Part shown: positions 27,001 through 36,000 of the stretch, one piece after another
How positions within the stretch are numbered: the stretch's first letter is position 1
Layout of the letters: each line of letters begins with the position of its first letter
NCBI GenBank assembly: GCA_934120715.1
Contig: CAKOUW010000001.1
Coordinates: 390,599-454,598, forward strand
Source: an uncultured Bacilli bacterium
GTDB lineage: Bacteria; Bacillota_I; Bacilli_A; RF39; UBA660
DNA length: 64,000 nt
Reading direction: 5' to 3'
Program-made: the position numbers

Positions 27001-30000
27001 TCTAAAAGTAAGATATCAGCATCACTTATAATTATAGAGGCAAAGGCTATAATAGATTTTTCTCCACCTGATAAGGTATTAAATTTTCTATTTAAGAGTT
27101 CTTTATTTATCTTAAAACCTTTTATTACTTTTTCTACTTTAGCATCTATTTCATAACCTGACATATTGATAAAATCTGTTTGAAGATTAGAATATCTTAT
27201 TATTAACTTTTCAATATTATCAACACTAGCATTAGTTATTTTTTCTTCATATTTATCTAGTTCTTTTTTTAAAGCAATTATATCTTTAATACCACTATAT
27301 AAAACATCTTTTACTGTTGTTTTGTCATCTTGATCTTCAACTATCTGTTTTAAATAACCTATTTTAGCATTTTTTCTTATTGATACAGTACCAGAGTCTG
27401 AATTAATTAAACCTGATACTATGTTTAGGATTGTTGACTTTCCTGAGCCATTTTCACCTACTAGGGCTATCCTTTCATTTGTTTTTACTTCAAAACTTAT
27501 ATTATTAAATACTTTATCAAAACCAAAACTTTTGGTTAATTTATTTATTCCTATTTCTATCATAAAATTCTCCTTAAAAAATAATAAAAGCTATACATCT
27601 GTATAGCTATAGCTTTTATACAGATGTAGGCACGACTAAAAGATCACACCTACATCTAATATTTTTAAGTTTAGATGTGAGGTGTGATAAATAATGTATA
27701 CATGATTACATTATTAACATGTTTATACATATTATCACGTCCTTCTTTCAAAAAAATTATAGCGTTATTTTAAAGAAATGTCAATTCTTGGAGGAATGTT
27801 ATCGCTAATTTGTTTTGTGATTATTCTAATAAAAGTCTTACAGTACCTCTATCTTCTAGTTTTGTATTAGCATCAGGAGACTGGGATACTACGGTTTCTC
27901 CAGTACCAGTATATTCTATGGTAAAGTTTGATAAAAGTTTTTTAGCTTCTTTTACGTTCATTCCTACAACATTTGGTACTTCATATGTTATTTTATCTGT
28001 CCATTCTAGATCTTTTTCTAACTCGTTGGGTTGTTTTTCTATATCTAGGGCTTCGATTATATCAAGTAGGATTCTTCTAGCAATTGGGGTTGTAGTATAA
28101 CTTGATAGAAGGGCTGTGTTTTTTGGATTATCAATAGCTAGATATAAAACTACTTCTGGATCATTTGATGGAACTACAGCCATAAATGACATTATGTAAT
28201 TACCTACTAAATATTTGCCATCTTTTACTTTTTGAGCAGTACCGGTTTTACCACCTATTCTATAACCTTCAATATAGGCTGATTTTCCTCCTCCTTTAGC
28301 AACAACACTTTCTAGAGCTCTTCTCATAATCTGAGATGTTTCACTGCTTATTACTTTTCTAACTAGAGTCTTTTTATTTTCTTTAACTATAGTGTTTACT
28401 TCTCCTTCTGAGATGTTTTTTACAATGTATGGTTTATACAAGTAACCACCATTAACAACTGCTGATACGGCTGTTACTTGTTGTATAGGAGTTACACTTA
28501 CTCCTTGACCAATTGGAGTCTATATAGGGTAACTCAAAGTTAAAATTTTTGCCACTATTATAAACTACTTTTTTACTAGAATTATCAAAATTAAATATTA
28601 TATTTAACTCTACATGCTTTCTATCATTATTAATTTTTCTCACATATACCTTCTTAATTAATAAATCAAATAAGTCTTTAAAACTATTATCTATATCTAT
28701 TTTCTTATCTAATATTTCTTTTATTTTATTTAATTTTTTTAGATATTTATTTTCCTTTAAATTAGATACTTCTAATTCTTTAATTAATTCATTATTACTT
28801 TTCAATTCTTTGTTATAGTTTTCATTTTTTTCTTTAAATTCAATATTACTAATATATCCATCTAAATTAAGTTCTAATAATTTATTTTTTAAATTTACTA
28901 TTCTTTTATTTTTCTCTTTTAACTCTAATAATTTATCTTTTTCACTATTTTCTTCTAATATCTTTTTATAATCTTCTAATATTATATTTAAAAGTTCTTC
29001 TTTATTAGTTAAAAAGTTACTTATAATTTTTTTGAATATTATATCTAAATGCTTTTCAAATAATGTAGGAGTATTACAAGCTTTGAGTCCACCTTTATGA
29101 TACTCTAGGCATTGCCATACAGGGTTACTATATCTTTTACCACATCCATGTCTACCAAAGTTACACTGATGCTCTACACACTCTAATTTACCTGTATAAG
29201 TATATTTATTATCATATACATTTTTTTTACCTCTTATATAACCATACTCTTTACTTTTAGCATTAAATATTTTGTTTGCTACATCCCATATTTCTTCTGA
29301 TACTATAGCAGGTATATTTTCATCTTTATAAATTATCCATTCTTCTTTTGGTCTATATATTTTCTTATGAGTTTTGTAATCTTCTATATAACTAATATTT
29401 CCACAGTAATATCCTTTATATTTTGGATTAGTAAGCATTCTTCTAAGAACTCTATCTGCATATGGTTTTCCTTTAGTATTTTTATATCCTTCTTCATAAA
29501 GTTTTTGTCCTATCGTTTTAAAACCATATTTACCAGTAGCATATAAACTAAATAACATTCTAATTATAGGGGCCTCATCTTCATTTATATAAAGTCTTCC
29601 TTTTTCTTTATAGTATCCTGTTATATTTCCACCACCTAATACTTTACCATCTTTAACACTTCTGTCTAATCCAAATTTAACACGACTAGATAATTTTCTA
29701 ACTTCATCTTGAGCTAGGCTAGACATTATAGTTAATCTAAATTCACAAGTTTCATCTAATGTATTTAAATTATCATTTAAAAAATTAACTACAACTCCAT
29801 TCTTTAATAAATAATCTGTGTATTTAATCGAATCAATTGTATTACGGGCAAATCGAGATACTTCTTTAGTTATAATCATATCGAACTTACCACTTATAGC
29901 ATCTTCAATCATTCTTAAAAAACTTTTTCGTTTAGCTACCCCTGTTGCACTTATTCCTTCATCAATATATTTACCTACTAACTTCCAAGACTTACTATTA

Positions 30001-33000: not shown

Positions 33001-36000
33001 TGGATGTATTTCATTTTCTTTAGCATTTAAAAATTTAAATAAACTTTTCATTAATGCTGGAACTAATATTGATTCAGGAGCAGTATAAATAATTTCATTT
33101 TTCTTTTTTATCGCTTCACCATGGTTTCTATAATAACCATTATCATCTTCAAAATACTTCATTAAAAGTGTGTGTGCTTTTAAAAAATCATCTTCATTTT
33201 TCCAATCATATTCATCCATATTTTCATATAATTCATTAGCGTTTTTTACTTCTTGTATTTCATTTCTATCTCCAAGTACTAGTTTATCATCAATAATTCT
33301 TTCAACTGAATTTAATGATAAAGAATTAGCTTCTATAGCAAGAGAGGAATAAATAGATCTTACTTTAGATTTAATTTGTAAATTTCTTTTTTTTATTATT
33401 ATCATTTAAAACTATTAAAGATAGTTTCTGTTCTATTTCTTTAATAATTTTTTTATTTTCATCACTAATATGAAATATTGGTTCTATAGTATCTATATTT
33501 TTCATTTTGACCTCCTTTTTATCAGACTAAATCTATTAGTATTATACTACAATTAATCTTATATTTACTAAGAAAAAAGGTAAATCTTATGAGCTCTTAA
33601 TGATACTTTTTATTTTATCTTACCTATTTTTTAGATGGATCTAGTGTAAATATAAAAGTCCCACTTAGTAGACACTTACACCAAAGGCTGTTGTGGAGAG
33701 TTCAACATTACCAACTTTATCTAGAGGAAATATAATTCCTTGACCTTCACCATTTAAATCAATTCCTGTTTTTTCACCAAAACCAAATTTATCTATATAA
33801 CTAAATAATCTTTCTTTACCTAGCATTTGCCCTATCTTCACGAATCCAGGATTGCATGAGTTCTGCAGAACCTGAAGGAAGGTTTGATCTCCGTGTCCTC
33901 CTGCTTTCCAACATTTTAAAACGGACCCATCTACATTTACGCTTCCTGAATCATAAAAATGGTCTTTATCTAAATCTACAATCTTTTCTTCTACAGCAGT
34001 TGCCATTGTTACTACTTTAAAAGTTGAACCTGGTTCATATGATGAAAAGATGGGCAAGTTTCTGCTTAGAACTTCTTGAGAGAATTTTTGATAATTATTA
34101 GGATCATATCCAGGCCTTGAACCCATTCCTAAAATTTCTCCTGTTTTAGGATCCATAGCGATTGCTAGAGCCATGTCTGGAGAAAACATGTCTACAATAT
34201 TATCTAATTCTCTTTCTATTGATTTTTGAATATTTATATCTATAGTTAGAGTTATATTCATACCTGATTGTGGTTCTACATAAATATCTGATAAATTAAG
34301 TTTATTTCCTTTAGCATCAGAAAAATATTTAATGGCTCCACTCTTTCCAGTCAAATATTTATCATATTGTAACTCTAATCCTGATAGACCTTGATTATCA
34401 ATACCAACGTAGCCTAGGGTATGTGATAAAAGATTTTTGTAAGGATAATACCTTTTAGCTTCTTTTACTAAATATATTCCATCCATTTCAAGAGATGATA
34501 TTTTCTCAGCTGTTTCATATGATAATCTTCTTCCTTCAGGATGGACTCTTTCTATTGATGTTTTTTTATAAACATGTTTTTTCATTTCTTTTTCTTCTAC
34601 TTTTAATATTTTAGCAAGTTCTTTAGTTGCTTTTTCCTTATCCTTTATTTGATTAGGAATTAAAATAAGCGAAGTTGTTGTTAAATTGTCAGCTAGAACA
34701 ACACCATTTCTATCTAATATTAAACCTCTATTTGCTTCTATTGGTAGATCTCTACTCCATAGATTTGATGCATAACTATTTAACTTCTTATAATCAAATA
34801 TTTGAATGTAGAAAACTCTTAAAATTATAAAAATAAATAAGAGAAGCATTACTAAAAAAGTCACTTTAATTCGTTCATCTATTTTTTTAAAAAACATAAT
34901 TCACCTCTAATAAAGGTGTATGCTTACTAATAAAAAAAAGACTAAAAGTTATTGCAACAATACGTTAATTAAGTTTATTTTTAGTAAATAGTTTTGGATA
35001 AACAAAAAACGTATAATTTTTGTTATACGCTTTTTGTTTAGGTATTTAATCATTTATACTACCAATTGTATTATTAAATATTTTTTACTTTTGATAAGAA
35101 GTTTTTAACTCTAATATCTTGTGGATTATTGAATATTTCTTCTGGAGTATTATCTTCTATTATTTTGCCTTCATCCATAAAAATAACTCTGGTAGAGAAG
35201 TTTTTAATAAAGTTCATTTCATGTGATACAACTAACATTGTCATACCGTCTTTAGCAATTTCTCTCATTAAATTAGTAACTTCTCCAATCATTTCTGGAT
35301 CAAGAGCAGATGTAGGTTCATCAAATAACATTAATTCTGGTTTCATTATAAGAGCCCTTATAATGGCAATTCTTTGCTTTTGACCGCCAGATAATTCTCT
35401 TGGATAATAATTCTTTTTATCTTCTAGATCAATTTTCTTTAGAAGTTTTGTAGCTTCTTTTATGGCATCTTTTCTTGTTAATAGGCCTAGTTTTACAGGA
35501 GATAAAATAATGTTTTCTAAAACAGTCATATTTTCAAAGAGATTAAATTGTTGAAAGACCATCCCTATTTTTCTTCTAATACCAGTAATATTACTATTTA
35601 AATTTATAGTTTCATTTTCAAAAGTAATAGTACCTGAAGTTGGTACTTCTAAAAAATTAATGGTTCTTAAAAAAGTAGATTTACCACATCCTGATGGTCC
35701 AATGATACCTATTATTTCTCCTTTATCTACTTTTAGATTTATACCTTTTAGGACTTTTTTCTGACCAAAATTTTTAACTAAATTCTTAACTTCTAACATT
35801 ATTTAACCTCTTTTCCATTAGGTTTATTAATCTAGCTAGACCATAAGTAATAATTAAATAAATTAGGGCTATTAATATTAATGGGAAGAAATAGTCATAT
35901 GTTCTTGAAGCTATAATATCACTAGCTTTTGTTAATTCTATTATACCTATATAGGCTCCAACTGATGTTTCCTTTACTAAAGTTATAAATTCATTACCTA

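Follow-up and report, generated by a model that had tools for sequence, protein, structure and literature searches.

In the genome of an uncultured gut member of the Bacilli, with 28% G+C, a class B penicillin-binding protein (PBP) gene that sequence comparison identifies as spoVD is split by a mobile element, and the same gene occurs uninterrupted in other assemblies of the species. The DNA analysed, called the window here, is a stretch of 64,000 nucleotides (contig CAKOUW010000001.1, positions 390,599 to 454,598). The gene is broken at 33680/28507 by an insert of 5,172 bp that leaves six open reading frames (ORFs) between the two halves, and all genes of the region lie on the minus strand. 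Our reading is that a small integrative element would have been placed in the gene by the large serine recombinase it encodes, and that its excision would restore spoVD, possibly in the mother cell during sporulation. We give this account as a whole, less certain steps included, a probability of roughly 0.6. Its first part, a precise recombinase-mediated insertion that is reversible in principle, is very probable; a link between excision and sporulation is given close to, though short of, an even chance. The principal features are as follows.

33680..34897, minus strand: spoVD 5' fragment, codons 1-406, with the PBP_dimer domain and the first half of the Transpeptidase domain; joins the 3' fragment in frame
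27821..28507, minus strand: spoVD 3' fragment, codons 407-634, with the remaining transpeptidase domain and one PASTA domain
28508..33679, minus strand: inserted element of 5,172 bp, missing from the syntenic loci L001-L003; its boundaries are arbitrary within a 5-base overlap
33652..33711, minus strand: attL, with the gene-side half-site, core TTGGT at 33684-33680 (central GG at 33682-33681) and the element-side half-site with GTCTA at 33673-33669
28480..28539, minus strand: attR, with the element-side half-site with TAGAC at 28522-28518, core TTGGT at 28512-28508 (central GG at 28510-28509) and the gene-side half-site
28452..30164, minus strand: large serine recombinase of 570 amino acids (aa) with a conserved GTG start; the ORF crosses attR and its last ~19 codons are spoVD sequence
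30248..30412, minus strand: ORF of 54 aa directly upstream of the recombinase, candidate recombination directionality factor
34917..34922, minus strand: CATACA box, candidate -10 of a sporulation-sigma (sigma-E/K-type) promoter, 20 nt 5' of the spoVD ATG

As it stands, the 5' half is a 410-aa ORF (34897-33665) that continues into the element, ends in ...AFGVSVY and stops at 33665, while a 206-aa ORF (28441-27821) covers the second half of the transpeptidase domain plus one PASTA domain. An initial annotation of the window had quoted the two junction sequences, both of which are found as written on the minus strand, and had proposed that a crossover in TTGGT would rebuild a conserved PBP motif. 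Joining the halves in silico at TTGGT indeed gives an ORF of 1,905 nt and 634 aa containing TAFGQGVSVTPIQ, in wider reading ...STTAFGQGVSVTPIQQ...; attL itself reads ...ACAGCCTTTGGTGTAAGTGTCTACTAAGTGGGAC..., with the 8-mer GTAAGTGT at 33679-33672 directly after TTGGT, and attR reads ...TATAGACTCCAATTGGTCAAGGAGTAAGTGTAACTCC..., with the same 8-mer at 28501-28494. A crossover within GTAAGTGT was considered and rejected: it is in frame and yields 632 aa, but it loses the residues QG, which the natural allele and all PBP homologs retain. Since the FGQG..VTP.Q motif is common to other class B PBPs, including SpoVD of Clostridioides difficile (where it reads SFGQSISVTPIQ), the join that retains QG is the correct one.

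The product of this join occurs in nature. A protein search with the joined 634-aa sequence returned 634-aa proteins at 99-100% identity, and three independent assemblies of the same species (L001-L003) carry the uninterrupted allele, with 632 of the 634 residues identical and with a junction, GCCTTTGGT followed directly by CAAGGAGTAAGTGTAACTCC, exactly as predicted from the join. The 3-kb flanks of the window and of the empty loci are 99.2% and 98.6% identical, and synteny is the same throughout, with a carbamate-kinase fusion gene and ABC transporter genes upstream and, as in the window, an ABC-F gene, a 496-aa orphan gene, mraY and spoVE/ftsW downstream. Measured against the empty site, attL and attR overlap in exactly five bases, TTGGT. 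The insertion is thus precise and its empty allele exists; in silico, the joined product equals the natural uninterrupted allele, so that excision would restore the ORF, as the initial annotation had foreseen.

Within the species, the exact 54-aa ORF was found in at least 21 contigs, with copies of the element at 97-100% identity; the ten places retrieved all hold the element, and each one with flanks reaching host DNA lies at the same spoVD locus. Several of the element-bearing contigs come from human gut samples. Uninterrupted alleles at 99-100% identity were found in about 17 contigs, so that contigs with and without the element are roughly equally common. In all ten filled loci of the species the spoVD fragments are free of stops and frameshifts. 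The Fic gene carried by the element, by contrast, has decayed. An apparent spoVD frameshift in one filled allele (L030) proved to be a scaffold gap of Ns. These data also dispose of the idea that the split gene is a chimera, with a mobile element and a PBP gene joined only by the assembly. Two assemblies (L026 and L027) do break inside the RhuM region of the element, which might have hinted at such an artefact, but the same junctions recur in at least nine independent assemblies from different studies, both junctions carry the exact 5-base core, and related elements in other species have the same architecture; the explanation is refuted and its chance is negligible.

Comparison with relatives narrows the crossover point further. 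At the loci with both junctions available, attL and attR have no more than GG in common in L006; they share GGT in L021, TTGGT in the window and GGGCAAGGT in L011. Since the GG of the Gly406 codon is the only position common to all of these overlaps, we infer that strand exchange would take place there. In the reconstructed attP sequences, a GG-centred dyad is the maximum in all three cases, with 13, 13 and 14 of 24 symmetric positions in the window, L006 and L011, and the dyad conserved in the family would be TAGAC-N7-GG-N7-GTCTA, with distal (G/A)nnACT motifs. Short cores in attL and attR, with the dyad maximum on the central dinucleotide, fit what is expected of the att sites of serine integrases. 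The imperfect inverted arms that had been proposed for attP do exist in the window, with 13 of 24 symmetric positions around a centre 7 nt to the right of GG, but the same centre scores only 9/24 in L006 and 5/24 in L011, and as a functional dyad these arms gave way to the GG-centred one after comparison with the two relatives. Nor is there support, as it stands, for the further suggestion that the element mimics the gene functionally through the shifted repeat of GTAAGTGT: a match like this 8-mer, offset by 6 bases, arises by chance in about 3% of pairs of random 30-mers taken from the window, and the repeat is specific to the window, the relatives having GTAAGAGT/GTTAGTGT (L006) and CAAGGTAT/GTTAGTGT (L011).

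The recombinase, to which the initial annotation had referred and which is encoded at the end of the element adjoining attR, has the domains expected of a large serine recombinase (serine integrase). Its Pfam matches are Resolvase (5.4e-29; aa 26-174, YYARVSTESDEQ) and Recombinase (1.5e-18), with Zn_ribbon_recom at 0.0025, below the Pfam cutoff; the Cys cluster is present and is followed by a K/E/L-rich segment. Against PHROG it matches the integrase family phrog_95 at 2e-104, its structural match is the conjugative-transposon recombinase 3G13, and its N-terminus is conserved in relatives from the GTG onward.

The relatives of this recombinase show where the family inserts. At more than 10 other loci with retrieved context, the gene lies directly upstream of the 3' fragment of a spoVD-like PBP. 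Recombinases of a first lineage, A, at 64-92% identity (L004-L007, L011, L017), split spoVD at the same Gly codon in six other host backgrounds, the PBPs of the hosts being mutually only 52-68% identical. Those of a second, B, at about 51% identity (L008-L010, L012-L014), split it at the Asn codon of the SxN motif, 59 codons upstream of the Gly site, with AA as central dinucleotide and an attP close to AGTATCTCTTG-N13-AA-N13-CAAGAGATACT. A third type, at 43% identity, is found at the SxxK motif in L015. Taken together, these loci show a family of elements that, as far as sequence context can tell, is specific to spoVD.

Several of these loci are of interest in themselves. In L006 (1-9073) two serine-recombinase elements stand in tandem in one spoVD, leaving the gene in three pieces or more: a 48%-identity recombinase ends at the SxN site and is followed by PBP codons 340-406 and then by a 6,455-bp lineage-A element at the GQG site, whose cargo is an ABC transporter. 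In L015 (7162-12912) the SxxK (STFK) site holds a small ORF and the 43%-identity recombinase at the left end of the element, and a lineage-B element in the same gene is apparently inverted, with the 3' end of its recombinase toward attL; possible causes are a nearly palindromic attP whose central dinucleotide was flipped, and misassembly of the metagenome-assembled genome. The elements of L008/L009 (320-11724) and L010 (1-11724) have an identical recombinase (P0183, present in more than 100 blocks of the collection) and the same SxN site with different cargo. The former carry a MacB-type ABC exporter, a phospholipase D, a choloylglycine (bile-salt) hydrolase and an IS110 transposase; the latter carries a coupling protein of a type IV secretion system (T4SS) and a 2,081-aa SNF2-type helicase typical of conjugative elements.

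Divergence patterns show, by comparison of sequences, an element that is horizontally mobile. Between the window and L022 the synonymous divergence (pS) is 0.02 for the recombinase and 0.12 for spoVD, and one recombinase, 92% identical, belongs to a host with a PBP at only about 60% identity. Such pairs, in which the element has diverged less than the genome around it, show that it moves between genomes, which in turn implies a working system of integration and excision; this spread across species lends indirect support to catalysis of attP x attB and attL x attR recombination by the recombinase. The ratio of nonsynonymous to synonymous divergence (pN/pS) is 0.1-0.3 for the recombinase and 0.02-0.03 for spoVD within the species. 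We had taken the latter value as possible proof that the split gene has kept its function, and dropped the argument, as the divergence predates the insertion.

The split gene itself is SpoVD by several lines of sequence comparison. The intact homolog scores 713.6 bits against the NCBIfam equivalog TIGR02214 (spoVD_pbp; cutoff 688), and far lower on the PBP2, FtsI and PBP2X models; the best match in the PDB is SpoVD of C. difficile (7RCZ) with 405.7 bits, the next match having 232.8. Upstream in the window are mraZ, rsmH and the gene of a PBP2X-like protein (716 aa, intact, two PASTA domains); downstream are mraY and a spoVE/ftsW gene, the spoVE-like gene scoring below its cutoff. The split gene therefore occupies the position of spoVD in the division and cell wall (dcw) cluster of Bacillus subtilis, as the second class B PBP in the order mraZ-rsmH-PBP2X-like ... 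mraY-spoVE. A CATAnA box is found about 20-27 nt before the ATG in four diverged orthologs whose surrounding intergenic sequence cannot be aligned, and the neighbouring genes carry TATAAT-type boxes. Elements of the CATA type are typical -10 elements of sigma-E and sigma-K promoters, and the box is suggestive of a sporulation promoter of spoVD. SpoVD, a class B transpeptidase specific to sporulation, builds the cortex of the spore; its only known role lies in the mother cell, and it is a beta-lactam target in spores.

Alternatively, the lineage might not sporulate and the gene might encode a vegetative class B PBP that is redundant, its loss being tolerated because the PBP2X-like paralog does the essential work. 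An intact second class B PBP does stand 14 kb upstream, and no other sporulation gene was seen in the about 84 kb examined. We regard this explanation as quite unlikely, given a score above the curated SpoVD equivalog cutoff, a resemblance to C. difficile SpoVD that is much closer than that to any of the vegetative PBPs in the PDB, a single PASTA domain and a dcw position shared with B. subtilis spoVD, the conserved CATA-type box in place of a TATAAT -10, and the strong constraint on the gene within the species expressed by its pN/pS.

If excision is active, a directionality factor would be expected, and the 54-aa ORF is the candidate. All ten related loci (10/10), from both lineages, have it next to the recombinase on the upstream side, with the conserved core L.LR(I/M)..N..LYE.KIIS..IY.KM...LI.K. 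It has no family match in Pfam, NCBIfam, PHROG or PADLOC. AlphaFold models it as a two-helix hairpin (predicted local distance difference test, pLDDT, 90), and a fold search with the model returned generic helical hairpins with no match at E <= 0.001. Directionality factors of serine integrases are small, structurally diverse proteins with no common motif (PMC12286644; PMC5595907), and linkage is for this reason the sole argument for the role of the ORF. We propose that role tentatively, at somewhat worse than even odds. In three lineage-A elements (the window at 30412-30425, L006 and L004) the small ORF has no Shine-Dalgarno sequence and a TATAAT stands 5 nt before its ATG, which suggests a leaderless transcript; the small ORFs of L011, L007 and all lineage-B elements have a normal ribosome-binding site, with a TTG start in lineage B.

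From these elements a mechanism can be proposed. The recombinase would recognise an attP of roughly 50 bp built on the TAGAC/GTCTA dyad (GACTCCAATTGGTGTAAGTG) and, as attB, the conserved coding sequence ...GCC TTT GGT CAA GGA GTA AGT... (GCCTTTGGTCAAGGAG), and would exchange strands at the central non-palindromic GG, thereby inserting this small non-phage element into the Gly406 codon. In the reverse reaction, attL (33682/33681) would recombine with attR (28510/28509), releasing the element as a circle and leaving an intact 634-aa spoVD without a scar, with GCCTTTGGTCAAGG at the junction. This reaction would require both the recombinase and the helical-hairpin protein as directionality factor. 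Excision would serve two ends, horizontal transfer between species and reconstitution of spoVD in the terminally differentiating mother cell, the latter modelled on skin/sigK, SPbeta/spsM, gin/gerE, vfbin/spoVFB and yin/yabG; both the role of the small ORF and the mother-cell timing are drawn from such analogy. The whole element is co-oriented with the gene, and read-through from the spoVD promoter is therefore a possible trigger. Identity of the gene and of its promoter would also be the basis for supposing that the host is able to sporulate.

A number of observations weigh against this account, and chiefly against its sporulation step. The attP junction of an excised circle (group A pattern) was not found in JGI metagenomes or IMG/VR; for the group B pattern there were four JGI matches, which we consider chance palindromes because none adjoins a recombinase or a PBP. 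Neither the small ORF nor the recombinase is preceded by a sigma-E/K-like box; the closest promoter-like sites are of sigma-A type, and a terminator separates the two genes. No decisive sporulation gene besides spoVD and the sub-cutoff spoVE-like gene was found in the 64-kb window or the flanking 10 kb on either side, and sporulation of the host is to that extent unproven. Given the horizontal spread of the element, the low pN/pS of the split spoVD cannot be ascribed to the time since insertion. The 54-aa ORF shows no detectable similarity to known directionality factors (a comparison that did not include GirX directly) and its hairpin fold is generic. Finally, transfer alone could explain an active excision system, since L010, a relative in the same gene, has conjugation genes.

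This last point leads to an alternative in which the element is an ordinary integrative mobilizable element, or the remnant of an integrative and conjugative element (ICE), that uses spoVD as a reliable landing site. The insertion would then be a knockout, excision a rare event that serves transfer, and the carriers would lack a cortex, be asporogenous or live independently of spores. Horizontal spread across and within species, presence/absence polymorphism within the species, the T4SS coupling protein and other conjugative genes of a relative in the same gene, and a recombination module devoid of a sporulation-type promoter all fit this view, as does the general, sporulation-independent pattern of divergent serine integrases converging on one site in a gene (PMC10083194). 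It accounts less well for the convergence of at least three recombinase lineages, with double insertions, on one gene whose known role is confined to the mother cell, which fits the safe-harbour logic of intervening elements; for an element that is present in about half of the sampled contigs and yet leaves spoVD fragments with neither stop nor frameshift while its cargo decays; and for the precedent that every experimentally studied serine-recombinase element in a mother-cell gene excises during sporulation (PMC5595907, PMC4191935, PMC5025042, PMC10747680). We consider this landing-site explanation possible, with the odds clearly against it. In favour of sporulation-linked excision we count the identity of target and promoter, the convergence of three lineages, the high prevalence with no decay of the gene, and the precedents. 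Improbable, in our view, is a more far-reaching version in which spoVD is, in this clade of gut Bacilli, a multi-lock developmental switch, with up to three unrelated serine-integrase elements at the SxxK, SxN and FGQG Gly sites, able to be present together and all excising in the mother cell to allow cortex synthesis, or a heritable toggle of lineages in the gut between spore-forming and non-spore-forming states; were it true, mobile elements carrying defence genes would control transmission by spores.

The remaining content of the element bears on its nature. Read from attL, the gene order is a twice-disrupted Fic gene with a winged helix-turn-helix (wHTH) domain, a 254-aa ORF, the 54-aa ORF, a hairpin and the recombinase.

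32943..33504, minus strand: Fic gene, 5' part, with a frameshift at an A8 run that is A7 in the intact copy
31781..32942, minus strand: secondary insertion of 1,162 bp with a RhuM-family gene (ORF 32830-31814), inside the Fic motif, between HPFxD and GNGR
31356..31780, minus strand: 3' part of the Fic-wHTH (SoFic-like) gene, starting ...GNGRLARFW and matching phrog_5978 positions 204-343; contiguous in L021
30457..31221, minus strand: 254-aa cargo ORF, weakly kinase-like (FTA2 at 3e-06, below cutoff)
30239..30259, minus strand: terminator-like hairpin between the 54-aa ORF and the recombinase

None of the PHROG matches of the element's ORFs belongs to a phage structural, lysis or replication family; besides the integrase they comprise the Fic halves and a marginal RhuM match, all to families of unknown or of regulatory/DNA-binding function. 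Relatives of the element were likewise not found among IMG/VR viral contigs, and on these two grounds a prophage origin was ruled out. Family searches with the six ORFs of the element returned no ICE machinery (relaxase, coupling protein, T4SS). Since it has no conjugation genes of its own, and a coupling protein is present in the relative L010, the element would be at most mobilizable, like an integrative and mobilizable element (IME).

Cargo differs among copies in the species: Fic is intact in L021, where the 1,162-bp insertion is missing from the same element, RhuM is inserted in most copies, and the insertion is partly deleted in L022. The intact Fic protein (328 aa) matches the SoFic defence model with 139 bits, and RhuM matches the PADLOC candidate PDC-S05 at 1.7e-147. 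The cassette, whose only gene is RhuM and which contains no recombinase, entered after GATG in the Fic active-site motif, and its end ...TCATCCTCAGATG is an imperfect copy of the target TCATCCCTTTAGTGATG. Two independently assembled filled loci, L026 and L027, are cut off within the RhuM gene at the contig start, which suggests that this region is repeated in the genome or heterogeneous within samples. The A8 run (window 33380-33395, A7 in L021) could stem from decay, phase variation or sequencing error. For the 254-aa ORF, pN/pS is about 0.6-0.8, a value based on few changes; the ORF is preceded by an extended -10 sigma-A-type promoter at 31264-31235 (TTGTAA-18-TATAAT with TG), and upstream of this promoter a palindrome at 31290-31315, AGAAATGATATCACTATCATTCT, might serve as an operator, perhaps one bound by the Fic wHTH domain.

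Near the recombinase, L004 has a hairpin equivalent to that of the window, placed immediately ahead of the start of its recombinase gene. In the window, a near-perfect palindrome, AGCATCATC-ACATG-GATGATACT, is found at 30182-30204, just 5' of the recombinase start. L007 and L011 share its conserved right half, GATGAT(A/G)CTTTTA, and the palindrome could be a second terminator or attenuator, or an operator. In the wider neighbourhood, an Rfam search returned zero RNA genes in the window, and the division and cell-wall cluster is interrupted by other genes (35074-46452). Between the PBP2X-like gene and spoVD lie genes for a pilin-like LPXTG protein, acetate kinase, the arginine deiminase pathway (including a carbamate kinase-DcuC fusion of 794 aa) and an amino-acid ABC transporter; between spoVD and mraY lie the ABC-F gene and the 496-aa orphan (25906-24416), a charged protein with no family match.

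The element is common in one species of the human gut, where about half of the sampled contigs carry it, and its family targets three spoVD motifs in many uncultured species. If excision is linked to sporulation, mobile elements with anti-phage-type cargo would gate cortex formation, and hence transmission, in poorly known gut bacteria. The att sites, GG- and AA-centred and about 50 bp long, with natural attB, attL and attR from several hosts, should be useful for serine-integrase biochemistry, and the pair of a compact integrase and a candidate directionality factor is ready material alongside them.

The sporulation genes known to be interrupted and then repaired through programmed excision of DNA are sigK, spsM, spoVFB, spoVR, gerE and yabG; cultured Bacillus and Clostridium supply nearly every example. 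Outside sporulation, the fdxN element of Anabaena heterocysts offers a case of developmental excision by a large serine recombinase, XisF, from a gene required only by a terminal cell type. XisF is among the NCBIfam matches of our recombinase, with 88 bits, far below its cutoff of 375, and phylum, target and accessory factors (XisH/XisI) are all different. A close likeness is to gin, which interrupts gerE in Bacillus cereus ATCC 10987 and is excised by the serine recombinase GirC with the directionality factor GirX (PMC5595907): both are small non-phage elements, in a mother-cell gene there and in a probable one here, with a large serine recombinase, a small unannotated protein that has no conserved motif, and a short core at the junctions that would let the ORF be restored without a scar. 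The differences are the target and the cultured Bacillus host of gin, and the experiments that established its excision timing and its need for GirX, whereas the present case is argued from sequence.

The skin element in sigK, with SpoIVCA/Skr in B. subtilis and CD1231/CD1234 in C. difficile (PMC5025042), and SPbeta in spsM, with SprA/SprB (PMC4191935, PMC5499854), likewise pair a serine integrase with a separate directionality factor, for which we have a candidate; in the mother cell they are excised, which restores a gene required in that cell alone, and the spore genome keeps the element (PMC5025042, PMC4191935). They are, however, prophages or remnants of 14-134 kb, as against a 5-kb element without phage genes, and their directionality factor or recombinase is under a sigma-E/K promoter, none being evident in the window element. 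Sporulation genes are also split by the recombinase-bearing elements vfbin (spoVFB), vrin (spoVR) and yin (yabG; PMC10747680), of which yin is polymorphic between close strains, as is the window element; these have other target genes and are all prophage-like.

As a dedicated target of an intervening element, spoVD has no report in the literature that we searched, which holds only a secondary site of ICEBs1 in B. subtilis spoVD (PMC3715440). That case also places a mobile element inside spoVD, but it concerns an ICE with a tyrosine integrase, at a laboratory-selected secondary site with poor excision rather than a dedicated attB (PMC3715440). A survey of large serine recombinases (LSRs) by Durrant et al. 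(2022; PMC10083194) found that divergent LSR clusters target the same conserved coding sequence, with an att core around a central dinucleotide and with ICEs, IMEs and phages as carriers. It was based on isolate genomes and highlights a gene for a Mg-chelatase/ATP-dependent protease, a prolyl isomerase and competence genes, its main text being without spoVD (PMC10083194); the pattern here differs in that three different sites within one gene are used. Our analysis thus points to an element that may function like the gin/gerE, skin/sigK and SPbeta/spsM systems, and whose most unusual aspect would be the occupancy of one gene at several sites and by several elements.

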